The notes: a model not told the origin generated them from the sequence alone. A DNA stretch of 64,000 bases from Monocercomonoides exilis PA203 (GCA_001643675.2 LSRY02000047.1:1-64000), one strand, 5' to 3'; counted from the first letter of the stretch, positions 1 through 24,675 are shown. Numbers and translations: made by a program.

Positions 1-1440
1 AACCCTAACCCTAACCCTAACCCTAACCCTAACCCTAACCCTAACCCTAACCCTAACCCTAACCCTAACCCTAACCCTAACCCTAACCCTAACCCTAACC
101 CTAACCCTAACCCTAACCCTAACCCTAACCCTAACCCTAACCCTAACCTAACCCTAACCCTAACCCTAACCCTAACCCTAACCCTAACCCTAACCCTAAC
201 CCTAACCCTAACCCTAACCCTAACCCTAACCCTAACCCTAACCCTAACCCTAACCCTAACCCCTAACCCTAACCCTAACCCTAACCCTAACCCTAACCCT
301 AACCCTAACCCTAACCCTAACCCTAACCCCTAACCCTAACCCTAACCCTAACCCTAACCCTAACCCTAACCCTAACCCTAACCCTAACCCCTAACCCTAA
401 CCCTAACCCTAACCCTAACCCTAACCCTAACCCTAACCCTAACCCTAACCCTAACCCTAACCCTAACCCTAACCCTAACCCTAACCCTAACCCTAACCCT
501 AACCCTAACCCTAACCCTAACCCTAACCTAACCCTAACCCTAACCCTAACCCTAACCCCTAACCCTAACCCTAACCCTAACCCTAACCCTAACCCTAACC
601 TAACCCTAACCTAACCCTAACCCTAACCCTAACCCTAACCCTAACCCTAACCCTAACCCTAACCCTAACCCTAACCCTAACCCTAACCCTAACCCTAACC
701 CTAACCCTAACCCTAACCCTAACCCTAACCCTAACCCTAACCCTAACCTAACCCTAACCCTAACCCTAACCCTAACCCTAACCCCTAACCCTAACCTAAC
801 CCTAACCCTAACCCTAACCTAACCTAACCCTAACCCTAACCCTAACCTAACCCCTAACCCTAACCCTAACCCTAACCTAACCCTAACCCTAACCCTAACC
901 CTAACCCTAACCCTAACCCTAACCCTAACCCTAACCCTAACCCTAACCCTAACCCTAACCCTAACCCTAACCCTAACCCTAACCCTAACCCTAACCCCTA
1001 ACCCTAACCCTAACCCTAACCCTAACCCTAACCCTAACCCTAACCCTAACCCTAACCCTAACCCTAACCCTAACCCTAACCCTAACCCTAACCCTAACCC
1101 TAACCCTAACCCTAACCCTAACCCCTAACCCTAACCCTAACCCTAACCCTAACCCTAACCCCTAACCCTAACCCTAACCCTAACCCTAACCCTAACCCCT
1201 AACCCTAACCCTAACCCTAACCCTAACCCTAACCCTAACCCTAACCCTAACCCTAACCCTAACCCTAACCCTAACCCTAACCCTAACCCTAACCTAGTTT
1301 GAACCCTAACCCTAACCCTAACCCTAACCCTAACCCTAACCCTAACCCTAACCCTAACCCTAACCCTAACCCTAACCCTAACCCTAACCTAACCCTAACC
1401 CTAACCCTAACCCTAACCCTAACCTAACCCTAACCCTAAC
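1..1440. repeat. Telomeric repeat tract (CCCTAA)n = (TTAGGG)n on the - strand; left chromosome end
   Basis: Near-perfect CCCTAA hexamers from base 1 to ~1440, with occasional CCTAA/CCCCTAA variants; C-rich strand on +, as expected for a left end. Confidence 0.98.
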
Positions 1441-1776
1441 CAAGTCTGTTCTCTTTCCTTGAGCTGGAGGTTCTCCGAATTCCTCATAATCTCCATCCTT
1501 TTTTACATATTCTATACACGCTTTTGGTCCCTTTTTAGGGATTTCTATATCAGCACGTGGACATAGTGCTTTGACTGTATCGAAACTTCTTGGTGTAGCA
1601 AATTGAACATATACATGTATGTGTGGGGTCCCAGTCGAAGGCGCTTTTTCTTTTCCGATAATCATGTATTTGCATCTTACATCTAACAAAGCTTGATATT
1701 CCTCTGGTGTAAAGTTATTTAACGTTAAGAAATAACTTCTATGCTGAGCGTTTCTTTGTTTTTGAATCTTCGGCAT
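1441..1776 (-). pseudogene. rep: Strain-A Rep truncated by the telomere (HUH endonuclease domain only; the frame continues into telomeric VR/LG codons to 1384)
   Basis: RCR motif I FLTLNN, motif II PHIHVY, motif III YVKKD, then ...QGKRTDL followed directly by GTTAGGG repeats; no helicase domain. Confidence 0.9.
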
Positions 1777-1798
1777 TATATATTCCGTTTTATGGGTT

Positions 1799-1836
1799 TA
1801 CGGAAGTTGCCCTTAATATTACTGGCAACTTCCGTA
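1799..1836 (+). promoter_or_regulatory. Rolling-circle origin hairpin 1 (strain A)
   Basis: 13-bp stem TACGGAAGTTGCC/GGCAACTTCCGTA with a 12-nt loop containing TAATATTAC (1814-1822); direct repeat ACTTCCGTAGTC x2 at 1828-1851. Confidence 0.95.
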
Positions 1837-1862
1837 GTCACTTCCGTAGTCAGCCAATTATT

Positions 1863-2282
1863 ATGGGTTGTGATCAAAATTTTTGTATGGTGAGATTTGC
1901 TTGGTTAGGTGATATTCCGGTTACAAAAGAAGCAGTGATTGAAGAATTGGATGTGATGTGGGCTCCGAGATGGACCAGAGCGTGGGAGCTACAGATGGAA
2001 AATGTTGATTGGTATATAGGTAGGGCTTTACATGTAGTAGCCAAAGCTCGAGAGGAGTTTGATAGGGTTTATTTGATAATGAAAGCACGTAATAGACGAA
2101 GGCCTAGGGCTCAGCGTAGGGTAGGCAGTGAGCGGAATCAAATAGCATCATTTCAAAGACATTGTTATCCATTAATTAAAAGAGTTTATAATTTATTTAT
2201 GCATAAACATGTTGAGATTTATAGAGCATTTAATGGTAGATGGAATGTACCTTGGCTATTTCAAGGGATACATTTTGAATAA
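1863..2282 (+). CDS. Viral ORF-X, strain A (139 aa, unknown function)
   Basis: ATG-initiated ORF; shares WAPRWTRAWxLQM, NRRRPR and FxGxWNxP motifs with the strain-B ORF at the same position. Confidence 0.8.
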   Translation: MGCDQNFCMVRFAWLGDIPVTKEAVIEELDVMWAPRWTRAWELQMENVDWYIGRALHVVAKAREEFDRVYLIMKARNRRRPRAQRRVGSERNQIASFQRHCYPLIKRVYNLFMHKHVEIYRAFNGRWNVPWLFQGIHFE

Positions 2283-2348
2283 CCATTATTTTATTTTATG
2301 TTTCTAGATATTGATCTGAAAATTCCTTTTTTTACTTTACATTTTTTC

Positions 2349-3581
2349 ATGTCGATTGTTAAATATAAACCACTACAAACATTAGGTTTTGGATCTAGAT
2401 TGCTGAAATCTTTTTATTCTCATACAACGCCACAAACTAGGCAACGTATGTTTCATGCAGCAGTTAATTTTGGTAGAAATGTAGGTTCTAGATTGTTATC
2501 TAGTGCTAGGGAATCATATAGAGCTGATCGTATTAATCGAGCCAGAAAAATTGGTGCTGATTTGTATGGTCAAGGACGTGTACAAAACTGGAAGCAGGTT
2601 AAACAGACTGGTGTAGGGAAAAAGATACATAGACGTGGACGTAGGTATAAATTTAGACTTAGACGTATGATGAAAAGGAGATTTAGGATAGGGAAAAGAA
2701 AGTATCTAAATTGGATGTATAAGAATAGACCTGCGATTTATAGATCATTTACGTCGGATACTTTTTCAGTTCAAGTTTACAATATGCCTTTTTATCAAGC
2801 TGGTACACCAGCTACTGTTTATCCAGCTAATTCTATATATTCATTTAATGTATCCAATGTGCAACCTATACCATTTTCTAATATAGATGCTGATTATATT
2901 TTATATAAACAACGATGGGAATTTTTATTTAAGTTTATTGGTAATGCTAATGCAACAAAGGATTATACTCATGCATATATTAGAGTTATATCTTTTCGTA
3001 AGTATGGATCTGCTGTAACAAATGATGTTCAAGAATCGCTTTGGTCTATGTTTAAATATCCTTATTTATTAACTTCGGGATATGTGACAGGGTTTAAATC
3101 CCGTTGGCTTAAGGAGTTTGGAATTCAATTATATTCAGATAAACTTCTTAGGGTTTCTGATGATACAAACTGGGCTACGGAATACAAAATTAATTTTTAT
3201 CCTAATATGCATACAAGATATAACAGTTCATTTGATGCTAATAGATGGTTTTATAGAATATTTATTATATGTGGTTTTGGAGTAGAAGATAAATTTGAAA
3301 ATTTATATACGAATACTCCTAATTTAACTTTACAGACTGATTATGTTCGTACTTCCTTATGGAAATTTGTGTCTGGTATGCCATTAGGTACTGGTGATAT
3401 TTCTCGGTTGACAATAACAGGGTTACCTAATAAAAATCAAAGTGTAGCCCCTAGGTTAGGGGGATTTGATGAACGGGAGGGTAGTGGTCTAAGCGGTAAT
3501 GAACCCGCGGGTGAAACAGGCGCCACCGGTTCGACCCCTACCCCCTCCTCTTCTTTTACTATTTTACATGATGATAATTAA
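2349..3581 (+). CDS. cap: Putative capsid protein, strain A (~410 aa)
   Basis: Virion-sense ORF opposite Rep; Arg/Lys-rich segment (HRRGRRYKFRLRRMMKRRFR) followed by an aromatic, beta-strand-like body; start set at MSIVK by alignment with strain B (the ORF track starts at 2298). Confidence 0.8.
   Translation: MSIVKYKPLQTLGFGSRLLKSFYSHTTPQTRQRMFHAAVNFGRNVGSRLLSSARESYRADRINRARKIGADLYGQGRVQNWKQVKQTGVGKKIHRRGRRYKFRLRRMMKRRFRIGKRKYLNWMYKNRPAIYRSFTSDTFSVQVYNMPFYQAGTPATVYPANSIYSFNVSNVQPIPFSNIDADYILYKQRWEFLFKFIGNANATKDYTHAYIRVISFRKYGSAVTNDVQESLWSMFKYPYLLTSGYVTGFKSRWLKEFGIQLYSDKLLRVSDDTNWATEYKINFYPNMHTRYNSSFDANRWFYRIFIICGFGVEDKFENLYTNTPNLTLQTDYVRTSLWKFVSGMPLGTGDISRLTITGLPNKNQSVAPRLGGFDEREGSGLSGNEPAGETGATGSTPTPSSSFTILHDDN
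3479..3543 (+). other. Conserved covarying 65-nt stem-loop in the cap 3' end (strain A copy; strain B equivalent at 6351-6415 and in every B unit)
   Basis: Arms GGGTAGTGGTC/GACCCCTACCC in A versus GGACAGTGGCG/CGCCCCTGTTC in B; same 43-nt interior and same T.C mismatch; four compensatory pair changes. Confidence 0.7.
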
Positions 3582-3674
3582 TAATTTTTTTTTTGAAAAA
3601 AACATTTCAATTATAATAAAATACGCATGTTAAACTTTACAGAGATGACTATATATAAAAATAAAATTTATAAA

Positions 3675-4637
3675 TTAAATTTGGTTAGAAAAATCTGATT
3701 CTTCTGGATTCGGTTCTGTTTCTTGTGTTTCAAATAGATTTGATGGTAGAGGAGTATTTTCATCTTCAATATCTATTGTTGTAATTCTTTCTCTTATTTG
3801 TTGTATATCTTCTGTTCTTAAGCTAGTAAATTTATTAAGCCATTCCGATTCTGGCCCAACTATGTCAGTGAAGTATACTACGTCAGCGCTGAAAACTGTA
3901 CTACCTCCTTTTACAGGTACTGTTGGATTGTACCATGGGTCGCAGATTTTTAACCATAGATTGAATGGCAAACCACAATCTGCTCTAAAGTCGTCGAATA
4001 TAGCTATCTCTTCTCCACTGTAGTTATCTATGAACGAACCTGTTTGTGGCCAATGGTAAATTCTCATACCGAATAATGTTTGCATTTCTTGAGCTCGTGT
4101 TTCAACTAATCTGGTTTTTCCTGTTCTTGCTTTTCCGTGAACCCAAAATACTTTGCGTGGTTCTTTTCTCATGCCTTGTTTTGTCCATACTTTTAGATAG
4201 GATAAATCCTTGATACCTTTTGAATGTAGGATAAATTGATCAGGATGCTCTTCAGATATTTCCATTATAGATTTACCTTCAGCTATTTTATCTGCTACTA
4301 TTTTTAGGTCTGATCTTTTACCCTGAATTGGGCAACTTCCATACTCCTCAAAATCCCCATCCTTTTTGATGTAGTCAATACATGCTTTTGCTCCTTTTTT
4401 AGGAACTTCAATATCTGCTCTTGGACACAGAGCTTTCATAGCATCGAAAGATCTAGGGTTCTCTAGCTGTATGAACACGTGCAAATGTGGTGTGCCTGTG
4501 CTTGGTGCTTTCTCCTTGCCTATTATCATATACTTGCAGCGGACATCCAGCAACGCTTGGTACTCTTCCGGTGTGAAATTATTAAGTGTTAAGAAGTATG
4601 ATCTATGTCTGTTTTGTTTTTGTTGAATTCTCGGCAT
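3675..4637 (-). CDS. rep: Rep (HUH endonuclease + SF3 helicase), B/A chimera, 320 aa
   Basis: Motifs FLTLNN, PHLHVF, YIKKD; Walker A GKARTGKT; Walker B IAIFDDF; Arg finger IRER; identical to strain B from 3954 to 4637 and divergent from 3675 to 3953. Confidence 0.95.
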   Translation of the reverse strand: MPRIQQKQNRHRSYFLTLNNFTPEEYQALLDVRCKYMIIGKEKAPSTGTPHLHVFIQLENPRSFDAMKALCPRADIEVPKKGAKACIDYIKKDGDFEEYGSCPIQGKRSDLKIVADKIAEGKSIMEISEEHPDQFILHSKGIKDLSYLKVWTKQGMRKEPRKVFWVHGKARTGKTRLVETRAQEMQTLFGMRIYHWPQTGSFIDNYSGEEIAIFDDFRADCGLPFNLWLKICDPWYNPTVPVKGGSTVFSADVVYFTDIVGPESEWLNKFTSLRTEDIQQIRERITTIDIEDENTPLPSNLFETQETEPNPEESDFSNQI

Positions 4638-4660
4638 TATATCTTCTGATCTATGGGTGA

Positions 4661-4698
4661 CACGGAAGTTGCCCTTAATATTACTGGCAACTTCCGTG
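4661..4698 (+). promoter_or_regulatory. Rolling-circle origin hairpin 2 (strain B)
   Basis: Stem CACGGAAGTTGCC/GGCAACTTCCGTG; TAATATTAC at 4676-4684; iterated GCAACTTCCGT. Confidence 0.95.
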
Positions 4699-4740
4699 CA
4701 ACTTCCGTGCTTCCGAAATAATTATGGGTGTGATCGATTT

Positions 4741-5145
4741 ATGGAAGTGTTAACCGATGAAATGTGGTTTATTGATGTTCCTGTCACTTTGGAAGCATTT
4801 GAAGAAGATGTTAGTGAGAATTGGGCACCTCGCTGGACACGTGCTTGGGGTTTACAAATGAAGAATGCTATGGAATACTTAGATTTATTGCAGCGTGTTA
4901 GTGATAAAGCATGGGAGAAATTTGCTAAGCTGCATGATTGGATGGTGTTTAAGAATCGCAGACGACCTCGAGGATTACGTAAGCAAGGTTCTAAAGATAG
5001 GCAATTAGTCGCATGGAGAAAATTGTTATATAAATTTTTGAAGTCTCATTTTAATAATTATTTAAGGAATCATAATCAGATATTTTATGAATTTCATGGT
5101 GCATGGAATAATCCTTATATTTTAAGAGAAATTAATTATTATTAA
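4741..5145 (+). CDS. Viral ORF-X, strain B (134 aa from the first in-frame ATG)
   Basis: Homologous to 1863-2282; the ORF-track GTG start at 4657 runs through the origin hairpin and is unlikely. Confidence 0.75.
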   Translation: MEVLTDEMWFIDVPVTLEAFEEDVSENWAPRWTRAWGLQMKNAMEYLDLLQRVSDKAWEKFAKLHDWMVFKNRRRPRGLRKQGSKDRQLVAWRKLLYKFLKSHFNNYLRNHNQIFYEFHGAWNNPYILREINYY

Positions 5146-5211
5146 CCATAATTTTATTTTATATGTCTTGATTTTGATCATGAAATTCCTTCTTTTCCAC
5201 ATCAGTATTTT

Positions 5212-6450
5212 ATGTCTATTGTGAAGTTTACACCTGGTCAATTAACAACAGGCTTACCTAGAAAATTATTTAATACTTTTATGTCTAGGACTACTCCTCA
5301 GACTAGGGCTAGGATTTTCCATGGTGCTGTAGGGTTAGGTAGAACAGCTTTAGGTTATGTTGCTAATGCTGCTCGTACAGCCTATCGAAATGATAGATTA
5401 AATCGTTCTAGGGTTAGCTTATCTAAAATGATAGGTCAGGGAAGAGTGCAGAATTGGAAACAGATTAAGCAAACTGGAACAGGTAAAAAGATTCATAGGA
5501 GAGGAAGGCGTAGTAGATATAGAATTAGAAGGATAAAAGCTCGTAAGTATCGTATTAGAAAGAGAAAATATTTAGGCTGGCTATATAAGAATAGACCTCC
5601 AATTTATCAGTCATATCATGGTGGTGAATTTAAATTTAGTCTTTACAATATGGCTGTTTATGTAGGTGATCAAAGTGTAGAAGAGTATCCTTCTGATAGT
5701 ATATATTCATTTAGGGTTACTGGTGAAGTTCCTCCTCAGTTAGAGTCTCCTAAAGTTGATTATATTTTGTATAAGCAACGGTGGGAGTTTATAATTAATA
5801 TACAAGCTGGATCTCTTCAGCCTTCTGCTTTTACTCATGCTTATGTTAGAGTATTGGTGTTTAGAAAGTGGGGTAGTGATATAACGAACTCGTTACAAAC
5901 TAGTTTATGGTCTATGTTTAAAAATCCTGCTATTATGACTAGTGGTTATGTCACCGGTTTTAGACGTAGGTGGTGCAAAGAATTTGGAGTTCAATTATAT
6001 CAGGATAAATTGCTTAGAATCAGTGATGAGACTAATTGGACAACTGAGTTTAAGTGTAATTTCTATCCTAATATTCATTCAAGATATAACTCTACTTTTG
6101 ATCAAGATTATTGGCATTATCAGATATATCTTATAGGTGGTTATGGCCCTGAAGATAAGTTTAATAATTTATGGAATGGTTCTGGTTCTTCGGAGTTGAA
6201 TGTTAGTGTTAAATATATTAGACTTAATCAATGGAAGTATGTGTCTGGGATGCCTCTTACTGCTGGTCAGTTGGATGTATTTAAGGTTTCTGGTATCCCA
6301 GATAAAATTCAGAGCAATCAACCTCGAATCGGTGGAGTTGATGTAAATGTGGACAGTGGCGGAGAGGGAAAAGATCTGGCCAGTGAAAGCGGCGCCTCCA
6401 GTTCCGCCCCTGTTCATAACAAATCTTTTAATATTTTGCATGATGATTAA
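5212..6450 (+). CDS. cap: Putative capsid protein, strain B (412 aa)
   Basis: Arg-rich segment HRRGRRSRYRIRRIKARKYRIRKRK; colinear with strain-A Cap (shared blocks such as DYILYKQRWEF and TSGYVTGF). Confidence 0.8.
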   Translation: MSIVKFTPGQLTTGLPRKLFNTFMSRTTPQTRARIFHGAVGLGRTALGYVANAARTAYRNDRLNRSRVSLSKMIGQGRVQNWKQIKQTGTGKKIHRRGRRSRYRIRRIKARKYRIRKRKYLGWLYKNRPPIYQSYHGGEFKFSLYNMAVYVGDQSVEEYPSDSIYSFRVTGEVPPQLESPKVDYILYKQRWEFIINIQAGSLQPSAFTHAYVRVLVFRKWGSDITNSLQTSLWSMFKNPAIMTSGYVTGFRRRWCKEFGVQLYQDKLLRISDETNWTTEFKCNFYPNIHSRYNSTFDQDYWHYQIYLIGGYGPEDKFNNLWNGSGSSELNVSVKYIRLNQWKYVSGMPLTAGQLDVFKVSGIPDKIQSNQPRIGGVDVNVDSGGEGKDLASESGASSSAPVHNKSFNILHDD

Positions 6451-6540
6451 ATTTTTTATAAACATTTCATTTTAAATTAACACGCATGTTATAACTGTAC
6501 AGAAGTGACTATATAAAAAATAAAAATGAATTAAAAAGTA

Positions 6541-7497
6541 TTAATTTATTTCTTGTTCTTCGTCATTGTTAGGTTCCGTGTTTTGTGTCTCCAAGAAGTT
6601 AGAAGGTAATGGTGTTTCTTCTGATTCTATGTCAATGATTGTTACTCTTTCTCTGATTTGCATGACGTCTTCATTTCTTAAGGATTTCATTTTGTTTAGC
6701 CATTCGCTTTCTGGTCCGACGATGTCTGTGAAGTATACTACGTCAGCTATGAAAACAGTTGAACCACCCTTTACAGGTACAGTAGGGTTGTACCAAGGAT
6801 CACAAAGTTTTAGCCATAGATTGAATGGCAAACCACAATCTGCTCTAAAGTCGTCGAATATAGCTATCTCTTCTCCACTGTAGTTATCTATGAACGAACC
6901 TGTTTGTGGCCAATGGTAAATTCTCATACCGAATAATGTTTGCATTTCTTGAGCTCGTGTTTCAACTAATCTGGTTTTTCCTGTTCTTGCTTTTCCGTGA
7001 ACCCAAAATACTTTGCGTGGTTCTTTTCTCATGCCTTGTTTTGTCCATACTTTTAGATAGGATAAATCCTTGATACCTTTTGAATGTAGGATAAATTGAT
7101 CAGGATGCTCTTCAGATATTTCCATTATAGATTTACCTTCAGCTATTTTATCTGCTACTATTTTTAGGTCTGATCTTTTACCCTGAATTGGGCAACTTCC
7201 ATACTCCTCAAAATCCCCATCCTTTTTGATGTAGTCAATACATGCTTTTGCTCCTTTTTTAGGAACTTCAATATCTGCTCTTGGACACAGAGCTTTCATA
7301 GCATCGAAAGATCTAGGGTTCTCTAGCTGTATGAACACGTGCAAATGTGGTGTGCCTGTGCTTGGTGCTTTCTCCTTGCCTATTATCATATACTTGCAGC
7401 GGACATCCAGCAACGCTTGGTACTCTTCCGGTGTGAAATTATTAAGTGTTAAGAAGTATGATCTATGTCTGTTTTGTTTTTGTTGAATTCTCGGCAT
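6541..7497 (-). CDS. rep: Rep, strain B (318 aa, intact)
   Basis: RCR motifs I-III, Walker A GKARTGKT, Walker B DDF. Confidence 0.95.
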   Translation of the reverse strand: MPRIQQKQNRHRSYFLTLNNFTPEEYQALLDVRCKYMIIGKEKAPSTGTPHLHVFIQLENPRSFDAMKALCPRADIEVPKKGAKACIDYIKKDGDFEEYGSCPIQGKRSDLKIVADKIAEGKSIMEISEEHPDQFILHSKGIKDLSYLKVWTKQGMRKEPRKVFWVHGKARTGKTRLVETRAQEMQTLFGMRIYHWPQTGSFIDNYSGEEIAIFDDFRADCGLPFNLWLKLCDPWYNPTVPVKGGSTVFIADVVYFTDIVGPESEWLNKMKSLRNEDVMQIRERVTIIDIESEETPLPSNFLETQNTEPNNDEEQEIN

Positions 7498-7520
7498 TAT
7501 ATCTTCTGATCTATGGGTGA

Positions 7521-7558
7521 CACGGAAGTTGCCCTTAATATTACTGGCAACTTCCGTG
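7521..7558 (+). promoter_or_regulatory. Origin hairpin 3
   Basis: Same stem; TAATATTAC at 7536. Confidence 0.95.
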
Positions 7559-7600
7559 CAACTTCCGTGCTTCCGAAATAATTATGGGTGTGATCGATTT

Positions 7601-8005
7601 ATGGAAGTGTTAACCGATGAAATGTGGTTTATTGATGTTCCTGTCACTTTGGAAGCATTTGAAGAAGATGTTAGTGAGAATTGGGCACCTCGCTGGACAC
7701 GTGCTTGGGGTTTACAAATGAAGAATGCTATGGAATACTTAGATTTATTGCAGCGTGTTAGTGATAAAGCATGGGAGAAATTTGCTAAGCTGCATGATTG
7801 GATGGTGTTTAAGAATCGCAGACGACCTCGAGGATTACGTAAGCAAGGTTCTAAAGATAGGCAATTAGTCGCATGGAGAAAATTGTTATATAAATTTTTG
7901 AAGTCTCATTTTAATAATTATTTAAGGAATCATAATCAGATATTTTATGAATTTCATGGTGCATGGAATAATCCTTATATTTTAAGAGAAATTAATTATT
8001 ATTAA
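7601..8005 (+). CDS. Viral ORF-X, strain B
   Basis: Same protein as 4741-5145. Confidence 0.75.
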   Translation: MEVLTDEMWFIDVPVTLEAFEEDVSENWAPRWTRAWGLQMKNAMEYLDLLQRVSDKAWEKFAKLHDWMVFKNRRRPRGLRKQGSKDRQLVAWRKLLYKFLKSHFNNYLRNHNQIFYEFHGAWNNPYILREINYY

Positions 8006-8071
8006 CCATAATTTTATTTTATATGTCTTGATTTTGATCATGAAATTCCTTCTTTTCCACATCAGTATTTT

Positions 8072-9310
8072 ATGTCTATTGTGAAGTTTACACCTGGTCA
8101 ATTAACAACAGGCTTACCTAGAAAATTATTTAATACTTTTATGTCTAGGACTACTCCTCAGACTAGGGCTAGGATTTTCCATGGTGCTGTAGGGTTAGGT
8201 AGAACAGCTTTAGGTTATGTTGCTAATGCTGCTCGTACAGCCTATCGAAATGATAGATTAAATCGTTCTAGGGTTAGCTTATCTAAAATGATAGGTCAGG
8301 GAAGAGTGCAGAATTGGAAACAGATTAAGCAAACTGGAACAGGTAAAAAGATTCATAGGAGAGGAAGGCGTAGTAGATATAGAATTAGAAGGATAAAAGC
8401 TCGTAAGTATCGTATTAGAAAGAGAAAATATTTAGGCTGGCTATATAAGAATAGACCTCCAATTTATCAGTCATATCATGGTGGTGAATTTAAATTTAGT
8501 CTTTACAATATGGCTGTTTATGTAGGTGATCAAAGTGTAGAAGAGTATCCTTCTGATAGTATATATTCATTTAGGGTTACTGGTGAAGTTCCTCCTCAGT
8601 TAGAGTCTCCTAAAGTTGATTATATTTTGTATAAGCAACGGTGGGAGTTTATAATTAATATACAAGCTGGATCTCTTCAGCCTTCTGCTTTTACTCATGC
8701 TTATGTTAGAGTATTGGTGTTTAGAAAGTGGGGTAGTGATATAACGAACTCGTTACAAACTAGTTTATGGTCTATGTTTAAAAATCCTGCTATTATGACT
8801 AGTGGTTATGTCACCGGTTTTAGACGTAGGTGGTGCAAAGAATTTGGAGTTCAATTATATCAGGATAAATTGCTTAGAATCAGTGATGAGACTAATTGGA
8901 CAACTGAGTTTAAGTGTAATTTCTATCCTAATATTCATTCAAGATATAACTCTACTTTTGATCAAGATTATTGGCATTATCAGATATATCTTATAGGTGG
9001 TTATGGCCCTGAAGATAAGTTTAATAATTTATGGAATGGTTCTGGTTCTTCGGAGTTGAATGTTAGTGTTAAATATATTAGACTTAATCAATGGAAGTAT
9101 GTGTCTGGGATGCCTCTTACTGCTGGTCAGTTGGATGTATTTAAGGTTTCTGGTATCCCAGATAAAATTCAGAGCAATCAACCTCGAATCGGTGGAGTTG
9201 ATGTAAATGTGGACAGTGGCGGAGAGGGAAAAGATCTGGCCAGTGAAAGCGGCGCCTCCAGTTCCGCCCCTGTTCATAACAAATCTTTTAATATTTTGCA
9301 TGATGATTAA
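8072..9310 (+). CDS. cap: Putative capsid protein, strain B
   Basis: Same protein as 5212-6450. Confidence 0.8.
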   Translation: MSIVKFTPGQLTTGLPRKLFNTFMSRTTPQTRARIFHGAVGLGRTALGYVANAARTAYRNDRLNRSRVSLSKMIGQGRVQNWKQIKQTGTGKKIHRRGRRSRYRIRRIKARKYRIRKRKYLGWLYKNRPPIYQSYHGGEFKFSLYNMAVYVGDQSVEEYPSDSIYSFRVTGEVPPQLESPKVDYILYKQRWEFIINIQAGSLQPSAFTHAYVRVLVFRKWGSDITNSLQTSLWSMFKNPAIMTSGYVTGFRRRWCKEFGVQLYQDKLLRISDETNWTTEFKCNFYPNIHSRYNSTFDQDYWHYQIYLIGGYGPEDKFNNLWNGSGSSELNVSVKYIRLNQWKYVSGMPLTAGQLDVFKVSGIPDKIQSNQPRIGGVDVNVDSGGEGKDLASESGASSSAPVHNKSFNILHDD

Positions 9311-9400
9311 ATTTTTTATAAACATTTCATTTTAAATTAACACGCATGTTATAACTGTACAGAAGTGACTATATAAAAAATAAAAATGAATTAAAAAGTA

Positions 9401-10355
9401 TTAATTTATTTCTTGTTCTTCGTCATTGTTAGGTTCCGTGTTTTGTGTCTCCAAGAAGTTAGAAGGTAATGGTGTTTCTTCTGATTCTATGTCAATGATT
9501 GTTACTCTTTCTCTGATTTGCATGACGTCTTCATTTCTTAAGGATTTCATTTTGTTTAGCCATTCGCTTTCTGGTCCGACGATGTCTGTGAAGTATACTA
9601 CGTCAGCTATGAAAACAGTTGAACCACCCTTTACAGGTACAGTAGGGTTGTACCAAGGATCACAAAGTTTTAGCCATAGATTGAATGGCAAACCACAATC
9701 TGCTCTAAAGTCGTCGAATATAGCTATCTCTTCTCCACTGTAGTTATCTATGAACGAACCTGTTTGTGGCCAATGGTAAATTCTCATACCGAATAATGTT
9801 TGCATTTCTTGAGCTCGTGTTTCAACTAATCTGGTTTTTCCTGTTCTTGCTTTTCCGTGAACCCAAAATACTTTGCGTGGTTCTTTTCTCATGCCTTGTT
9901 TTGTCCATACTTTTAGATAGGATAAATCCTTGATACCTTTTGAATGTAGGATAAATTGATCAGGATGCTCTTCAGATATTTCCATTATAGATTTACCTTC
10001 AGCTATTTTATCTGCTACTATTTTTAGGTCTGATCTTTTACCCTGAATTGGGCAACTTCCATACTCCTCAAAATCCCCATCCTTTTGATGTAGTCAATAC
10101 ATGCTTTTGCTCCTTTTTAGGAACTTCAATATCTGCTCTTGGACACAGAGCTTTCATAGCATCGAAAGATCTAGGGTTCTCTAGCTGTATGAACACGTGC
10201 AAATGTGGTGTGCCTGTGCTTGGTGCTTTCTCCTTGCCTATTATCATATACTTGCAGCGGACATCCAGCAACGCTTGGTACTCTTCCGGTGTGAAATTAT
10301 TAAGTGTTAAGAAGTATGATCTATGTCTGTTTTGTTTTTGTTGAATTCTCGGCAT
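9401..10355 (-). pseudogene. rep: Rep, strain B, with two 1-nt deletions in T-runs (possibly sequencing errors)
   Basis: T5>T4 near 10083 and T6>T5 near 10114 split the ORF; otherwise matches the intact Rep. Confidence 0.7.
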
Positions 10356-10378
10356 TATATCTTCTGATCTATGGGTGA

Positions 10379-10416
10379 CACGGAAGTTGCCCTTAATATT
10401 ACTGGCAACTTCCGTG
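10379..10416 (+). promoter_or_regulatory. Origin hairpin 4
   Basis: Same stem; TAATATTAC at 10394. Confidence 0.95.
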
Positions 10417-10458
10417 CAACTTCCGTGCTTCCGAAATAATTATGGGTGTGATCGATTT

Positions 10459-10863
10459 ATGGAAGTGTTAACCGATGAAATGTGGTTTATTGATGTTCCT
10501 GTCACTTTGGAAGCATTTGAAGAAGATGTTAGTGAGAATTGGGCACCTCGCTGGACACGTGCTTGGGGTTTACAAATGAAGAATGCTATGGAATACTTAG
10601 ATTTATTGCAGCGTGTTAGTGATAAAGCATGGGAGAAATTTGCTAAGCTGCATGATTGGATGGTGTTTAAGAATCGCAGACGACCTCGAGGATTACGTAA
10701 GCAAGGTTCTAAAGATAGGCAATTAGTCGCATGGAGAAAATTGTTATATAAATTTTTGAAGTCTCATTTTAATAATTATTTAAGGAATCATAATCAGATA
10801 TTTTATGAATTTCATGGTGCATGGAATAATCCTTATATTTTAAGAGAAATTAATTATTATTAA
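10459..10863 (+). CDS. Viral ORF-X, strain B
   Basis: Same protein as 4741-5145. Confidence 0.75.
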   Translation: MEVLTDEMWFIDVPVTLEAFEEDVSENWAPRWTRAWGLQMKNAMEYLDLLQRVSDKAWEKFAKLHDWMVFKNRRRPRGLRKQGSKDRQLVAWRKLLYKFLKSHFNNYLRNHNQIFYEFHGAWNNPYILREINYY

Positions 10864-10929
10864 CCATAATTTTATTTTATATGTCTTGATTTTGATCATG
10901 AAATTCCTTCTTTTCCACATCAGTATTTT

Positions 10930-12168
10930 ATGTCTATTGTGAAGTTTACACCTGGTCAATTAACAACAGGCTTACCTAGAAAATTATTTAATACTTTTAT
11001 GTCTAGGACTACTCCTCAGACTAGGGCTAGGATTTTCCATGGTGCTGTAGGGTTAGGTAGAACAGCTTTAGGTTATGTTGCTAATGCTGCTCGTACAGCC
11101 TATCGAAATGATAGATTAAATCGTTCTAGGGTTAGCTTATCTAAAATGATAGGTCAGGGAAGAGTGCAGAATTGGAAACAGATTAAGCAAACTGGAACAG
11201 GTAAAAAGATTCATAGGAGAGGAAGGCGTAGTAGATATAGAATTAGAAGGATAAAAGCTCGTAAGTATCGTATTAGAAAGAGAAAATATTTAGGCTGGCT
11301 ATATAAGAATAGACCTCCAATTTATCAGTCATATCATGGTGGTGAATTTAAATTTAGTCTTTACAATATGGCTGTTTATGTAGGTGATCAAAGTGTAGAA
11401 GAGTATCCTTCTGATAGTATATATTCATTTAGGGTTACTGGTGAAGTTCCTCCTCAGTTAGAGTCTCCTAAAGTTGATTATATTTTGTATAAGCAACGGT
11501 GGGAGTTTATAATTAATATACAAGCTGGATCTCTTCAGCCTTCTGCTTTTACTCATGCTTATGTTAGAGTATTGGTGTTTAGAAAGTGGGGTAGTGATAT
11601 AACGAACTCGTTACAAACTAGTTTATGGTCTATGTTTAAAAATCCTGCTATTATGACTAGTGGTTATGTCACCGGTTTTAGACGTAGGTGGTGCAAAGAA
11701 TTTGGAGTTCAATTATATCAGGATAAATTGCTTAGAATCAGTGATGAGACTAATTGGACAACTGAGTTTAAGTGTAATTTCTATCCTAATATTCATTCAA
11801 GATATAACTCTACTTTTGATCAAGATTATTGGCATTATCAGATATATCTTATAGGTGGTTATGGCCCTGAAGATAAGTTTAATAATTTATGGAATGGTTC
11901 TGGTTCTTCGGAGTTGAATGTTAGTGTTAAATATATTAGACTTAATCAATGGAAGTATGTGTCTGGGATGCCTCTTACTGCTGGTCAGTTGGATGTATTT
12001 AAGGTTTCTGGTATCCCAGATAAAATTCAGAGCAATCAACCTCGAATCGGTGGAGTTGATGTAAATGTGGACAGTGGCGGAGAGGGAAAAGATCTGGCCA
12101 GTGAAAGCGGCGCCTCCAGTTCCGCCCCTGTTCATAACAAATCTTTTAATATTTTGCATGATGATTAA
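10930..12168 (+). CDS. cap: Putative capsid protein, strain B
   Basis: Same protein as 5212-6450. Confidence 0.8.
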   Translation: MSIVKFTPGQLTTGLPRKLFNTFMSRTTPQTRARIFHGAVGLGRTALGYVANAARTAYRNDRLNRSRVSLSKMIGQGRVQNWKQIKQTGTGKKIHRRGRRSRYRIRRIKARKYRIRKRKYLGWLYKNRPPIYQSYHGGEFKFSLYNMAVYVGDQSVEEYPSDSIYSFRVTGEVPPQLESPKVDYILYKQRWEFIINIQAGSLQPSAFTHAYVRVLVFRKWGSDITNSLQTSLWSMFKNPAIMTSGYVTGFRRRWCKEFGVQLYQDKLLRISDETNWTTEFKCNFYPNIHSRYNSTFDQDYWHYQIYLIGGYGPEDKFNNLWNGSGSSELNVSVKYIRLNQWKYVSGMPLTAGQLDVFKVSGIPDKIQSNQPRIGGVDVNVDSGGEGKDLASESGASSSAPVHNKSFNILHDD

Positions 12169-12258
12169 ATTTTTTATAAACATTTCATTTTAAATTAACA
12201 CGCATGTTATAACTGTACAGAAGTGACTATATAAAAAATAAAAATGAATTAAAAAGTA

Positions 12259-13215
12259 TTAATTTATTTCTTGTTCTTCGTCATTGTTAGGTTCCGTGTT
12301 TTGTGTCTCCAAGAAGTTAGAAGGTAATGGTGTTTCTTCTGATTCTATGTCAATGATTGTTACTCTTTCTCTGATTTGCATGACGTCTTCATTTCTTAAG
12401 GATTTCATTTTGTTTAGCCATTCGCTTTCTGGTCCGACGATGTCTGTGAAGTATACTACGTCAGCTATGAAAACAGTTGAACCACCCTTTACAGGTACAG
12501 TAGGGTTGTACCAAGGATCACAAAGTTTTAGCCATAGATTGAATGGCAAACCACAATCTGCTCTAAAGTCGTCGAATATAGCTATCTCTTCTCCACTGTA
12601 GTTATCTATGAACGAACCTGTTTGTGGCCAATGGTAAATTCTCATACCGAATAATGTTTGCATTTCTTGAGCTCGTGTTTCAACTAATCTGGTTTTTCCT
12701 GTTCTTGCTTTTCCGTGAACCCAAAATACTTTGCGTGGTTCTTTTCTCATGCCTTGTTTTGTCCATACTTTTAGATAGGATAAATCCTTGATACCTTTTG
12801 AATGTAGGATAAATTGATCAGGATGCTCTTCAGATATTTCCATTATAGATTTACCTTCAGCTATTTTATCTGCTACTATTTTTAGGTCTGATCTTTTACC
12901 CTGAATTGGGCAACTTCCATACTCCTCAAAATCCCCATCCTTTTTGATGTAGTCAATACATGCTTTTGCTCCTTTTTTAGGAACTTCAATATCTGCTCTT
13001 GGACACAGAGCTTTCATAGCATCGAAAGATCTAGGGTTCTCTAGCTGTATGAACACGTGCAAATGTGGTGTGCCTGTGCTTGGTGCTTTCTCCTTGCCTA
13101 TTATCATATACTTGCAGCGGACATCCAGCAACGCTTGGTACTCTTCCGGTGTGAAATTATTAAGTGTTAAGAAGTATGATCTATGTCTGTTTTGTTTTTG
13201 TTGAATTCTCGGCAT
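12259..13215 (-). CDS. rep: Rep, strain B (intact)
   Basis: Same protein as 6541-7497. Confidence 0.95.
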   Translation of the reverse strand: MPRIQQKQNRHRSYFLTLNNFTPEEYQALLDVRCKYMIIGKEKAPSTGTPHLHVFIQLENPRSFDAMKALCPRADIEVPKKGAKACIDYIKKDGDFEEYGSCPIQGKRSDLKIVADKIAEGKSIMEISEEHPDQFILHSKGIKDLSYLKVWTKQGMRKEPRKVFWVHGKARTGKTRLVETRAQEMQTLFGMRIYHWPQTGSFIDNYSGEEIAIFDDFRADCGLPFNLWLKLCDPWYNPTVPVKGGSTVFIADVVYFTDIVGPESEWLNKMKSLRNEDVMQIRERVTIIDIESEETPLPSNFLETQNTEPNNDEEQEIN

Positions 13216-13238
13216 TATATCTTCTGATCTATGGGTGA

Positions 13239-13276
13239 CACGGAAGTTGCCCTTAATATTACTGGCAACTTCCGTG
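13239..13276 (+). promoter_or_regulatory. Origin hairpin 5
   Basis: Same stem; TAATATTAC at 13254. Confidence 0.95.
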
Positions 13277-13318
13277 CAACTTCCGTGCTTCCGAAATAAT
13301 TATGGGTGTGATCGATTT

Positions 13319-13723
13319 ATGGAAGTGTTAACCGATGAAATGTGGTTTATTGATGTTCCTGTCACTTTGGAAGCATTTGAAGAAGATGTTAGTGAGAATT
13401 GGGCACCTCGCTGGACACGTGCTTGGGGTTTACAAATGAAGAATGCTATGGAATACTTAGATTTATTGCAGCGTGTTAGTGATAAAGCATGGGAGAAATT
13501 TGCTAAGCTGCATGATTGGATGGTGTTTAAGAATCGCAGACGACCTCGAGGATTACGTAAGCAAGGTTCTAAAGATAGGCAATTAGTCGCATGGAGAAAA
13601 TTGTTATATAAATTTTTGAAGTCTCATTTTAATAATTATTTAAGGAATCATAATCAGATATTTTATGAATTTCATGGTGCATGGAATAATCCTTATATTT
13701 TAAGAGAAATTAATTATTATTAA
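13319..13723 (+). CDS. Viral ORF-X, strain B
   Basis: Same protein as 4741-5145. Confidence 0.75.
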   Translation: MEVLTDEMWFIDVPVTLEAFEEDVSENWAPRWTRAWGLQMKNAMEYLDLLQRVSDKAWEKFAKLHDWMVFKNRRRPRGLRKQGSKDRQLVAWRKLLYKFLKSHFNNYLRNHNQIFYEFHGAWNNPYILREINYY

Positions 13724-13789
13724 CCATAATTTTATTTTATATGTCTTGATTTTGATCATGAAATTCCTTCTTTTCCACATCAGTATTTT

Positions 13790-15028
13790 ATGTCTATTGT
13801 GAAGTTTACACCTGGTCAATTAACAACAGGCTTACCTAGAAAATTATTTAATACTTTTATGTCTAGGACTACTCCTCAGACTAGGGCTAGGATTTTCCAT
13901 GGTGCTGTAGGGTTAGGTAGAACAGCTTTAGGTTATGTTGCTAATGCTGCTCGTACAGCCTATCGAAATGATAGATTAAATCGTTCTAGGGTTAGCTTAT
14001 CTAAAATGATAGGTCAGGGAAGAGTGCAGAATTGGAAACAGATTAAGCAAACTGGAACAGGTAAAAAGATTCATAGGAGAGGAAGGCGTAGTAGATATAG
14101 AATTAGAAGGATAAAAGCTCGTAAGTATCGTATTAGAAAGAGAAAATATTTAGGCTGGCTATATAAGAATAGACCTCCAATTTATCAGTCATATCATGGT
14201 GGTGAATTTAAATTTAGTCTTTACAATATGGCTGTTTATGTAGGTGATCAAAGTGTAGAAGAGTATCCTTCTGATAGTATATATTCATTTAGGGTTACTG
14301 GTGAAGTTCCTCCTCAGTTAGAGTCTCCTAAAGTTGATTATATTTTGTATAAGCAACGGTGGGAGTTTATAATTAATATACAAGCTGGATCTCTTCAGCC
14401 TTCTGCTTTTACTCATGCTTATGTTAGAGTATTGGTGTTTAGAAAGTGGGGTAGTGATATAACGAACTCGTTACAAACTAGTTTATGGTCTATGTTTAAA
14501 AATCCTGCTATTATGACTAGTGGTTATGTCACCGGTTTTAGACGTAGGTGGTGCAAAGAATTTGGAGTTCAATTATATCAGGATAAATTGCTTAGAATCA
14601 GTGATGAGACTAATTGGACAACTGAGTTTAAGTGTAATTTCTATCCTAATATTCATTCAAGATATAACTCTACTTTTGATCAAGATTATTGGCATTATCA
14701 GATATATCTTATAGGTGGTTATGGCCCTGAAGATAAGTTTAATAATTTATGGAATGGTTCTGGTTCTTCGGAGTTGAATGTTAGTGTTAAATATATTAGA
14801 CTTAATCAATGGAAGTATGTGTCTGGGATGCCTCTTACTGCTGGTCAGTTGGATGTATTTAAGGTTTCTGGTATCCCAGATAAAATTCAGAGCAATCAAC
14901 CTCGAATCGGTGGAGTTGATGTAAATGTGGACAGTGGCGGAGAGGGAAAAGATCTGGCCAGTGAAAGCGGCGCCTCCAGTTCCGCCCCTGTTCATAACAA
15001 ATCTTTTAATATTTTGCATGATGATTAA
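13790..15028 (+). CDS. cap: Putative capsid protein, strain B
   Basis: Same protein as 5212-6450. Confidence 0.8.
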   Translation: MSIVKFTPGQLTTGLPRKLFNTFMSRTTPQTRARIFHGAVGLGRTALGYVANAARTAYRNDRLNRSRVSLSKMIGQGRVQNWKQIKQTGTGKKIHRRGRRSRYRIRRIKARKYRIRKRKYLGWLYKNRPPIYQSYHGGEFKFSLYNMAVYVGDQSVEEYPSDSIYSFRVTGEVPPQLESPKVDYILYKQRWEFIINIQAGSLQPSAFTHAYVRVLVFRKWGSDITNSLQTSLWSMFKNPAIMTSGYVTGFRRRWCKEFGVQLYQDKLLRISDETNWTTEFKCNFYPNIHSRYNSTFDQDYWHYQIYLIGGYGPEDKFNNLWNGSGSSELNVSVKYIRLNQWKYVSGMPLTAGQLDVFKVSGIPDKIQSNQPRIGGVDVNVDSGGEGKDLASESGASSSAPVHNKSFNILHDD

Positions 15029-15118
15029 ATTTTTTATAAACATTTCATTTTAAATTAACACGCATGTTATAACTGTACAGAAGTGACTATATAAAAAATA
15101 AAAATGAATTAAAAAGTA

Positions 15119-16074
15119 TTAATTTATTTCTTGTTCTTCGTCATTGTTAGGTTCCGTGTTTTGTGTCTCCAAGAAGTTAGAAGGTAATGGTGTTTCTTCT
15201 GATTCTATGTCAATGATTGTTACTCTTTCTCTGATTTGCATGACGTCTTCATTTCTTAAGGATTTCATTTTGTTTAGCCATTCGCTTTCTGGTCCGACGA
15301 TGTCTGTGAAGTATACTACGTCAGCTATGAAAACAGTTGAACCACCCTTTACAGGTACAGTAGGGTTGTACCAAGGATCACAAAGTTTTAGCCATAGATT
15401 GAATGGCAAACCACAATCTGCTCTAAAGTCGTCGAATATAGCTATCTCTTCTCCACTGTAGTTATCTATGAACGAACCTGTTTGTGGCCAATGGTAAATT
15501 CTCATACCGAATAATGTTTGCATTTCTTGAGCTCGTGTTTCAACTAATCTGGTTTTTCCTGTTCTTGCTTTTCCGTGAACCCAAAATACTTTGCGTGGTT
15601 CTTTTCTCATGCCTTGTTTTGTCCATACTTTTAGATAGGATAAATCCTTGATACCTTTTGAATGTAGGATAAATTGATCAGGATGCTCTTCAGATATTTC
15701 CATTATAGATTTACCTTCAGCTATTTTATCTGCTACTATTTTTAGGTCTGATCTTTTACCCTGAATTGGGCAACTTCCATACTCCTCAAAATCCCCATCC
15801 TTTTGATGTAGTCAATACATGCTTTTGCTCCTTTTTTAGGAACTTCAATATCTGCTCTTGGACACAGAGCTTTCATAGCATCGAAAGATCTAGGGTTCTC
15901 TAGCTGTATGAACACGTGCAAATGTGGTGTGCCTGTGCTTGGTGCTTTCTCCTTGCCTATTATCATATACTTGCAGCGGACATCCAGCAACGCTTGGTAC
16001 TCTTCCGGTGTGAAATTATTAAGTGTTAAGAAGTATGATCTATGTCTGTTTTGTTTTTGTTGAATTCTCGGCAT
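15119..16074 (-). pseudogene. rep: Rep, strain B, with one 1-nt deletion in a T-run (possibly a sequencing error)
   Basis: T5>T4 near 15801 shifts the frame after DYIK. Confidence 0.7.
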
Positions 16075-16097
16075 TATATTTTCTGTTTTATGGGTGA

Positions 16098-16135
16098 CAC
16101 GGAAGTTGCCCTTAATATTACTGGCAACTTCCGTG
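16098..16135 (+). promoter_or_regulatory. Origin hairpin 6
   Basis: Same stem; TAATATTAC at 16113. Confidence 0.95.
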
Positions 16136-16177
16136 CAACTTCCGTGCTTCCGAAATAATTATGGGTGTGATCGATTT

Positions 16178-16582
16178 ATGGAAGTGTTAACCGATGAAAT
16201 GTGGTTTATTGATGTTCCTGTCACTTTGGAAGCATTTGAAGAAGATGTTAGTGAGAATTGGGCACCTCGCTGGACACGTGCTTGGGGTTTACAAATGAAG
16301 AATGCTATGGAATACTTAGATTTATTGCAGCGTGTTAGTGATAAAGCATGGGAGAAATTTGCTAAGCTGCATGATTGGATGGTGTTTAAGAATCGCAGAC
16401 GACCTCGAGGATTACGTAAGCAAGGTTCTAAAGATAGGCAATTAGTCGCATGGAGAAAATTGTTATATAAATTTTTGAAGTCTCATTTTAATAATTATTT
16501 AAGGAATCATAATCAGATATTTTATGAATTTCATGGTGCATGGAATAATCCTTATATTTTAAGAGAAATTAATTATTATTAA
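16178..16582 (+). CDS. Viral ORF-X, strain B
   Basis: Same protein as 4741-5145. Confidence 0.75.
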   Translation: MEVLTDEMWFIDVPVTLEAFEEDVSENWAPRWTRAWGLQMKNAMEYLDLLQRVSDKAWEKFAKLHDWMVFKNRRRPRGLRKQGSKDRQLVAWRKLLYKFLKSHFNNYLRNHNQIFYEFHGAWNNPYILREINYY

Positions 16583-16648
16583 CCATAATTTTATTTTATA
16601 TGTCTTGATTTTGATCATGAAATTCCTTCTTTTCCACATCAGTATTTT

Positions 16649-17887
16649 ATGTCTATTGTGAAGTTTACACCTGGTCAATTAACAACAGGCTTACCTAGAA
16701 AATTATTTAATACTTTTATGTCTAGGACTACTCCTCAGACTAGGGCTAGGATTTTCCATGGTGCTGTAGGGTTAGGTAGAACAGCTTTAGGTTATGTTGC
16801 TAATGCTGCTCGTACAGCCTATCGAAATGATAGATTAAATCGTTCTAGGGTTAGCTTATCTAAAATGATAGGTCAGGGAAGAGTGCAGAATTGGAAACAG
16901 ATTAAGCAAACTGGAACAGGTAAAAAGATTCATAGGAGAGGAAGGCGTAGTAGATATAGAATTAGAAGGATAAAAGCTCGTAAGTATCGTATTAGAAAGA
17001 GAAAATATTTAGGCTGGCTATATAAGAATAGACCTCCAATTTATCAGTCATATCATGGTGGTGAATTTAAATTTAGTCTTTACAATATGGCTGTTTATGT
17101 AGGTGATCAAAGTGTAGAAGAGTATCCTTCTGATAGTATATATTCATTTAGGGTTACTGGTGAAGTTCCTCCTCAGTTAGAGTCTCCTAAAGTTGATTAT
17201 ATTTTGTATAAGCAACGGTGGGAGTTTATAATTAATATACAAGCTGGATCTCTTCAGCCTTCTGCTTTTACTCATGCTTATGTTAGAGTATTGGTGTTTA
17301 GAAAGTGGGGTAGTGATATAACGAACTCGTTACAAACTAGTTTATGGTCTATGTTTAAAAATCCTGCTATTATGACTAGTGGTTATGTCACCGGTTTTAG
17401 ACGTAGGTGGTGCAAAGAATTTGGAGTTCAATTATATCAGGATAAATTGCTTAGAATCAGTGATGAGACTAATTGGACAACTGAGTTTAAGTGTAATTTC
17501 TATCCTAATATTCATTCAAGATATAACTCTACTTTTGATCAAGATTATTGGCATTATCAGATATATCTTATAGGTGGTTATGGCCCTGAAGATAAGTTTA
17601 ATAATTTATGGAATGGTTCTGGTTCTTCGGAGTTGAATGTTAGTGTTAAATATATTAGACTTAATCAATGGAAGTATGTGTCTGGGATGCCTCTTACTGC
17701 TGGTCAGTTGGATGTATTTAAGGTTTCTGGTATCCCAGATAAAATTCAGAGCAATCAACCTCGAATCGGTGGAGTTGATGTAAATGTGGACAGTGGCGGA
17801 GAGGGAAAAGATCTGGCCAGTGAAAGCGGCGCCTCCAGTTCCGCCCCTGTTCATAACAAATCTTTTAATATTTTGCATGATGATTAA
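16649..17887 (+). CDS. cap: Putative capsid protein, strain B
   Basis: Same protein as 5212-6450. Confidence 0.8.
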   Translation: MSIVKFTPGQLTTGLPRKLFNTFMSRTTPQTRARIFHGAVGLGRTALGYVANAARTAYRNDRLNRSRVSLSKMIGQGRVQNWKQIKQTGTGKKIHRRGRRSRYRIRRIKARKYRIRKRKYLGWLYKNRPPIYQSYHGGEFKFSLYNMAVYVGDQSVEEYPSDSIYSFRVTGEVPPQLESPKVDYILYKQRWEFIINIQAGSLQPSAFTHAYVRVLVFRKWGSDITNSLQTSLWSMFKNPAIMTSGYVTGFRRRWCKEFGVQLYQDKLLRISDETNWTTEFKCNFYPNIHSRYNSTFDQDYWHYQIYLIGGYGPEDKFNNLWNGSGSSELNVSVKYIRLNQWKYVSGMPLTAGQLDVFKVSGIPDKIQSNQPRIGGVDVNVDSGGEGKDLASESGASSSAPVHNKSFNILHDD

Positions 17888-17977
17888 ATTTTTTATAAAC
17901 ATTTCATTTTAAATTAACACGCATGTTATAACTGTACAGAAGTGACTATATAAAAAATAAAAATGAATTAAAAAGTA

Positions 17978-18932
17978 TTAATTTATTTCTTGTTCTTCGT
18001 CATTGTTAGGTTCCGTGTTTTGTGTCTCCAAGAAGTTAGAAGGTAATGGTGTTTCTTCTGATTCTATGTCAATGATTGTTACTCTTTCTCTGATTTGCAT
18101 GACGTCTTCATTTCTTAAGGATTTCATTTTGTTTAGCCATTCGCTTTCTGGTCCGACGATGTCTGTGAAGTATACTACGTCAGCTATGAAAACAGTTGAA
18201 CCACCCTTTACAGGTACAGTAGGGTTGTACCAAGGATCACAAAGTTTTAGCCATAGATTGAATGGCAAACCACAATCTGCTCTAAAGTCGTCGAATATAG
18301 CTATCTCTTCTCCACTGTAGTTATCTATGAACGAACCTGTTTGTGGCCAATGGTAAATTCTCATACCGAATAATGTTTGCATTTCTTGAGCTCGTGTTTC
18401 AACTAATCTGGTTTTTCCTGTTCTTGCTTTTCCGTGAACCCAAAATACTTTGCGTGGTTCTTTTCTCATGCCTTGTTTTGTCCATACTTTTAGATAGGAT
18501 AAATCCTTGATACCTTTTGAATGTAGGATAAATTGATCAGGATGCTCTTCAGATATTTCCATTATAGATTTACCTTCAGCTATTTTATCTGCTACTATTT
18601 TTAGGTCTGATCTTTTACCCTGAATTGGGCAACTTCCATACTCCTCAAAATCCCCATCCTTTTGATGTAGTCAATACATGCTTTTGCTCCTTTTTAGGAA
18701 CTTCAATATCTGCTCTTGGACACAGAGCTTTCATAGCATCGAAAGATCTAGGGTTCTCTAGCTGTATGAACACGTGCAAATGTGGTGTGCCTGTGCTTGG
18801 TGCTTTCTCCTTGCCTATTATCATATACTTGCAGCGGACATCCAGCAACGCTTGGTACTCTTCCGGTGTGAAATTATTAAGTGTTAAGAAGTATGATCTA
18901 TGTCTGTTTTGTTTTTGTTGAATTCTCGGCAT
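17978..18932 (-). pseudogene. rep: Rep, strain B, with two 1-nt deletions in T-runs (possibly sequencing errors)
   Basis: Same two homopolymer deletions as the 9401-10355 copy. Confidence 0.7.
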
Positions 18933-18955
18933 TATATCTTCTGATCTATGGGTGA

Positions 18956-18993
18956 CACGGAAGTTGCCCTTAATATTACTGGCAACTTCCGTG
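18956..18993 (+). promoter_or_regulatory. Origin hairpin 7
   Basis: Same stem; TAATATTAC at 18971. Confidence 0.95.
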
Positions 18994-19035
18994 CAACTTC
19001 CGTGCTTCCGAAATAATTATGGGTGTGATCGATTT

Positions 19036-19440: not shown

Positions 19441-19506
19441 CCATAATTTTATTTTATATGTCTTGATTTTGATCATGAAATTCCTTCTTTTCCACATCAG
19501 TATTTT

Positions 19507-21792: not shown

Positions 21793-21815
21793 TATATTTT
21801 CTGTTTTATGGGTGA

Positions 21816-24652: not shown

Positions 24653-24675
24653 TATATTTTCTGTTTTATGGGTGA

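Follow-up and report, generated by a model that had tools for sequence, protein, structure and literature searches.

The chromosome end of Monocercomonoides exilis PA203 described here is a telomere-capped tandem array of CRESS virus genomes, and at its tip two viruses, likely distinct species and designated types A and B, are joined in a real and recent recombinant that keeps the Rep gene open. The window, i.e., the whole stretch of 64,000 nt (LSRY02000047.1:1-64000), follows the chromosome from the telomere through type A and the type B array to host DNA. Type A (1441-3953) covers 88% of one unit, and ~350 nt of it, corresponding to Rep codons 113-228, are missing from the window. Each unit carries Rep on the minus strand and ORF-X and the capsid gene on the plus strand. 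The features, counted from the first letter of the window, are as follows.

1..1441, no strand: telomere, (TAACCC)n.
1441..1776, minus strand: N-terminal part of the type A Rep (112 codons), truncated by the telomere and comprising the nicking domain and its motifs I-III; 79% amino acid identity to B.
1799..1852, plus strand: type A origin, a stem-loop with the nonanucleotide TAATATTAC (1814-1822) and repeats that presumably act as iterons; z -5.2.
1863..2282, plus strand: type A ORF-X, 139 aa, common to Banfec virus 5 and to gene models at other host loci.
2298..3581, plus strand: type A capsid gene, 63% amino acid identity to the Banfec virus 5 capsid and 53% to B; predicted jelly-roll fold.
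3675..4637, minus strand: chimeric Rep, 320 aa, open frame, codons 1-228 of type B and 229-320 of type A; 94% identical to the B Rep.
3953..3954, no strand: A/B switch, with 3953 as the last A-specific base; the actual crossover is at 3954 or slightly to the right of it.
3954..24724, plus strand: type B head-to-tail array, seven complete units, each 2858-2860 nt long, and the partial one within the chimera.
24725..24742, plus strand: inner junction, an imperfect copy of the right arm of the B origin, followed by AT-rich host DNA.

The final difference between A and B is found at 3953 (against 6813), and from 3954 on there is none at an offset of 2860. Sliding-window comparison of the first unit with the second showed a sharp rise of identity, from 50-76% before 3914 to 100% from 3954; in 100-nt windows the values are 0.50-0.76 (1814-3913), 0.91 (3914-4013) and 1.00 (4014-4675). 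The switch lies 11 codons past Walker B, at 33 nt from both Walker B (3987-4007) and motif B' (3903-3920), and precedes helicase motif C (3864-3878). The original prediction had placed the last difference at 3953/6813 and the crossover in the helicase between Walker B and motif C with the frame kept; base comparison bears out the former, and the located motifs together with the open 320-aa ORF agree with the latter. Codons 1-228 of the chimeric Rep match B at every base, whereas codons 229-320 share 78% of amino acids and 69% of nucleotides with it. Over the 348 nt for which A's own sequence is lacking, the probability of zero differences would be 10^-34 to 10^-48 at 20-27% divergence. Because not one difference exists in 228 codons, the donor is, as judged from the sequence, exactly this B genotype. 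Motif C usually carries an Asn, which is absent from it in A, in B and in their closest relatives.

Overall, A and B share 65% nucleotide identity over 2481 aligned columns, with 53% amino acid identity in Cap and 37% in ORF-X, and 101 of 333 bases differ in the N-terminal part of the A Rep (1441-1776). Synonymous differences (pS) amount to 0.60-0.91, near saturation, and non-synonymous ones to 0.14-0.45. Genomes of this kind are placed in the same species at identities above ~77-80%, and the 65% found here lies below that range. Owing to this low identity and to synonymous sites near saturation, A and B likely represent two species and not strains; the divergence recognized by the original prediction is thus genuine, but its term “strain” is too weak. 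All three A genes are open across 2.5 kb, and both types probably evolved under selection as viruses. The iterons had also been listed as differing, which holds for the flanks of the origins but not for the 36-nt stem-loop and the core repeat, common to both types.

The junction was further compared with short-read contigs, not single reads, of four runs (X1-X4) that represent one sample, possibly the source of the window; no single read leading from the telomere by way of A and B to the host DNA was seen. In three of them (X1, X2, X3) the A-specific contig ends at 3983, i.e., 30 letters into the B-identical sequence, and the next contig (738 nt, 3954-4691) is unbranched. Type A sequence left of 3953 is in these three runs tied to B on the right, as had been proposed, and a branching of B into an A-type central Rep is not encountered in these contigs. 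In X4 no A contig is present at the junction, and A is thinly covered (depth 0-2.4). The 418-nt left arm of A, extending 29 letters beyond 1441, is present in all four runs, and the telomere join is supported there by the length of this arm and not by its letters. Unitigs simulated from the window (k=31) reproduce the ends at 1412-1829, 3983, 3954 and 4662-4697, the simulated left arm (1412-1829) being likewise 418 nt long with telomere as its first 30 letters. The B:A depth is 7.4, 7.6, 8.9 and 6.6 in the four runs against a predicted value of 8, which, as a rough measure of depth and not of copy number, leaves little room for further A or B copies. An assembly switch between two loci, or between an episome and the chromosome, could be favored by an array whose 23 kb consist of nearly identical repeats and whose homopolymer indels look like those of long-read error, and by the inability of short-read contigs to link the A pieces over the shared origin and over the conserved end of Cap; it is nevertheless very improbable, because the contig ends agree with the window's own graph and the depth ratio fits, in addition to the presence, in three runs, of the junction word, which consists of A base 3953 and the 30 letters of B that follow. 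Breaks predicted from the homopolymer indels and from a 3-base origin variant are absent from the contigs, either because these variants were collapsed by the assembler or because they are long-read errors. For a free type A with the B centre already in place, 350 bases without a difference would have to lie between saturated flanks, which would again imply a very recent exchange with this B.

The same contigs contain a further virus type of ~2.9 kb at 5.5-5.9x the depth of A (X2, X3, X4), likely another tandem array elsewhere in the genome. Another type, of 2488 nt and single-copy depth, adds cover only in X2 (one of the four runs) and could reflect filtering or a changed culture; positions 1830-2003 of A are uncovered in X2. 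A second chimera, between types C and D, was hinted at by X2 contig ends and was set aside, as a short shared stretch explains them equally well.

Concerning the nature of the virus, Rep matches the Pfam family RNA_helicase above the cut-off, and Viral_Rep and Gemini_AL1 below it. A Rep with HUH nuclease motifs I-III and an SF3 helicase, an origin stem-loop with nonanucleotide and a predicted jelly-roll capsid place it in Cressdnaviricota, known here from integrated copies only, with free relatives in existence. The capsid structure model (pLDDT 63) has its best matches in STNV, geminivirus and CRESS capsids, and the protein is predicted to form a single jelly-roll. ORF-X gave no match in Pfam or in the Atlas. 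In the Rep tree A and B are sisters with a support of 100/100, while capsid A is joined to Banfec virus 5 in the capsid tree (94/90, not starred); the two trees conflict, support on the Cap side being moderate, and some of their rows are trimmed sequences of spliced gene models. In a 14-row tree the B Rep clusters, at 95/96, with the Reps of Banfec 5 and Sigmofec and with other M. exilis ones. Among the best 120 of 618 and the best 150 of 13048 matches there is no Rep labelled as belonging to Naryaviridae, Nenyaviridae, Vilyaviridae, Redondoviridae, Kirkoviridae or Pecoviridae. The closest free viruses among the matches listed are Banfec virus 5, Sigmofec virus UA08Rod_11492 and Dipodfec viruses RodF1_112 and UA06Rod_92. 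The Banfec viruses come from coyote faeces, and the Sigmofec and Dipodfec viruses are presumably of rodent origin, judging from their names. Banfec virus 5 has ORF-X in common with the present virus, a Cap 63% identical to that of A and a Rep 42% identical to that of B. Its “capsid” record consists of an ORF-X-like part nearer B joined to a capsid nearer A; splicing may link ORF-X to Cap, and the virus group appears mosaic. The Rep of Sigmofec virus UA08Rod_11492 and another M. exilis copy share 86% identity across 198 aa, which points to a very recent integration and to an oxymonad host for these faecal viruses.

Eight of the 13 capsid matches are M. exilis gene models, distributed on five contigs, and a related Rep is repeated on a sixth, so that related virus genes occur on at least six contigs. 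Alternating accession numbers suggest that several of these loci are separate arrays, and at one of them the NCBI label reads “putative replication-associated protein.” In a scan with the Cap alignment, none of 56 candidate stretches in viral contigs and none of 99 in metagenome contigs proved to be a relative; the Rep scan of viral contigs led to 47 distant loci with a best segment of 27-43%.

The B origins are located at 4676, 7536, 10394, 13254, 16113, 18971, 21831 and 24691. The window holds nine copies of TAATATTAC, three of which were folded (z -4.9 to -6.0). B units differ from each other only by 1-nt homopolymer indels and by the 3-base variant, which occupies the left arm of three of the eight B origins (16080-16088, 21798-21806, 24658-24666) and is interleaved with the common form. 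One-base homopolymer differences (window 7536-24690), which may be errors of the long reads, interrupt three B copies of Rep and one of Cap. In both of its arms the innermost origin departs from B, and it may be what is left of an older genotype; its altered right arm (24725-24742) forms a small hairpin. Because the repeat right of the innermost nonanucleotide is of type B and not of type A, it was B that joined the host DNA, and A lies outside B. Tblastn gave no viral matches in 24751-64000, and no subtelomeric repeats were seen in the window between the array and the host genes. The latter encode a TmcB-TPR protein (28586-33601, minus), a 2934-aa kinase (39698-48502, minus) and an M3 oligopeptidase F (56006-57607, plus), and a host ORF (36466-37095, plus) has a weak metallo-beta-lactamase-fold match.

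At the outer side, 214 of the 239 telomere repeats are perfect and 23 are off by one C, the telomere being clean up to the junction with no degenerate repeat zone at the virus side. Base 1441 is compatible with both the telomere repeat and the viral codon, and the frame of the A Rep N-terminal part continues into the repeats, with a stop at 1384 in the present assembly. This telomere-cut Rep (1384-1776, minus) retains its nicking domain; helicase-less Reps are able to act as inhibitors in geminiviruses. The M. exilis telomere repeat is given as TTAGGG in PMC6759080. The join, 373 nt away from the nearest origin, does not coincide with the Rep nick site, and telomere addition at that site was ruled out. 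Virus-borne telomeric repeats as the cause were dropped as well, since right of 1441 there are no runs of two or more telomeric hexamers and only three single hexamers occur in 1442-4700. Clean repeats directly after A, far from the nick site, are as expected of new telomere addition.

The likeliest history, to which we give somewhat better than an even chance, is that a chromosome end finishing in type B was extended by copying a circle of the second virus, type A, from a short homology and was then capped by telomerase. A short match within the helicase region of Rep would be the starting point, and after 2.5 kb, with 88% of A copied, synthesis would stop at Rep codon 112 and telomerase would re-cap the end there. 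By convention the strand bearing the nonanucleotide is the virion strand, and at this end TAATATTAC stands on the C-rich strand of the telomere; the chromosome 3' end would hence be the virus complementary strand, which could anneal to an incoming single-stranded circle without strand invasion and prime synthesis toward the tip. The B repeats themselves could stem from the same priming plus strand displacement. At 65-75% identity classical homologous recombination between A and B is unlikely, and since identical runs outside the origin measure 20 nt at most, short-match priming or template switching seems to be favored. PMC8516963 reports that metamonads have no Ku-dependent end joining and are capable of break-induced replication. 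Capture by recombination or template switching followed by telomerase capping had been suggested by the original prediction, and it survives here apart from the classical homologous route. The idea of an incoming A upon a resident B is upheld as to A lying outside B; a later arrival does not follow, as the geometry sets only the chromosomal order and both viruses could have been captured in one co-infection. Most likely, end repair went astray in a host that is often co-infected, and no dedicated trap was at work.

Alternatively, the recombinant may have formed among circles or concatemers in a co-infected nucleus, been joined to the chromosome, or recombined by its B part into the B array, and then been truncated by telomere addition, which would leave an identical sequence; we regard this as possible but unlikely. 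Chimeric Reps are present in ~71% of unclassified CRESS viruses according to PMC5923481, the conflict between the Rep and Cap trees suggests module swaps among free members of the group, and the two interleaved origin-arm variants of the B array look as if derived from mixed templates. On the other hand, a second crossover, later lost, or a single co-infection event would be needed, no extra A or recombinant population accompanies the ratio of one A to eight B in the depth of all four runs, and the perfect match over 228 codons indicates this very B genotype as donor.

Going beyond the favored copying of an A circle by a B-type end, the chromosome ends of this oxymonad might prime directly on incoming single-stranded circles and build a time-ordered archive, used for defence or for Rep-driven release of recombinants, a proposal that we find doubtful. 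It is slightly more doubtful still that this tip is a polarised site archiving successive viruses (old origin remnant, B, A) and defending the host through small RNAs or a helicase-less Rep. The innermost origin, unlike B on both arms, could be such an earlier-genotype remnant, the cut A Rep keeps motifs I-III with an origin upstream, one further virus type appears in only one of the four runs, and small RNAs against CRESS integrants have been reported in Entamoeba (PMC7493932). However, this tip displays one clear addition only, and the other types reside on five further contigs, where alternating accession numbers in several cases hint at arrays of their own. New types therefore settle at many sites, which speaks against a dedicated trap, and the earlier suggestion that the locus traps new strains at its tip becomes unlikely.

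That A was the resident, with B inserted or overwriting it from inside, is hardly credible: the shared 36-nt origin could hide a second crossover and the left-arm variant at three inner origins is nearer A than the common B arm, but the repeat beside the innermost nonanucleotide is that of B, and the three open A genes give no sign of greater age.

The array is of interest beyond this locus. Both parents of a chimeric Rep are preserved side by side, in a process for which trees of free viruses are as a rule the only source of inference, and an array of whole CRESS genomes is itself the chromosome end. An oxymonad host is indicated for a group of faecal CRESS viruses for which no host assignment was found. 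With a culturable M. exilis and related genes on several contigs, CRESS integration, persistence, recombination and protection become testable.

Whole-genome and tandem CRESS integrants (Entamoeba, Giardia) and a subtelomeric CRESS integrant of a chytrid are already known, and chimeric Reps are common. An oxymonad CRESS virus or a telomere-capped array of two viruses was not found among the titles listed for the literature outside subscription journals; the text of PMC9615429 has no oxymonad term, that of PMC8767320 does not contain “virus,” “viral” or “tandem,” and six gene names had no match in four supplementary files of the latter. Table S11 of PMC6759080 counts 196 genes as transposition-related or derived from integrated viruses, and may already label some of the virus genes discussed here.

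Among the known systems, mobile DNA also forms the chromosome end in the telomere-integrating herpesviruses (HHV-6, Marek's disease virus) and in the telomeric retroelements HeT-A/TART of Drosophila and GilM/GilT of Giardia, the retroelements being head-to-tail and polarised. Unlike the herpesviruses, the present virus bears no telomeric arrays, and unlike the retroelements, no reverse transcriptase was found among its ORFs. The CRESS elements of Giardia duodenalis and Entamoeba (Vilyaviridae, Naryaviridae, Nenyaviridae) are likewise whole Rep and Cap genomes in gut protists, and one of Giardia is a 10-kb tandem element resolved by long reads, similar to the array described here (PMC7493932). 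In the same report recombination served as evidence of a shared host; these elements belong to a different host lineage, the main text mentions no telomere, and its sections that deal with them describe neither a two-species array nor an in-chromosome chimeric Rep. BdDV-1 of Batrachochytrium dendrobatidis is also a CRESS integrant near a chromosome end, accompanied by Rep-like ORFs of different ancestry (bioRxiv 10.1101/2023.03.16.532857), but its 4.4-kb locus lies 21 kb off the telomere, with no occurrence of “tandem” or “recombin” in that preprint, whereas the M. exilis virus forms the last 23 kb and touches the repeats. Finally, the chimeric Reps of unclassified CRESS viruses likewise arose by in-frame recombination inside rep (PMC5923481); the comparison there is between nuclease domains and helicase domains of free viruses, whereas in M. 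exilis the switch lies within the helicase, the parents are adjacent and the donor is 100% identical.
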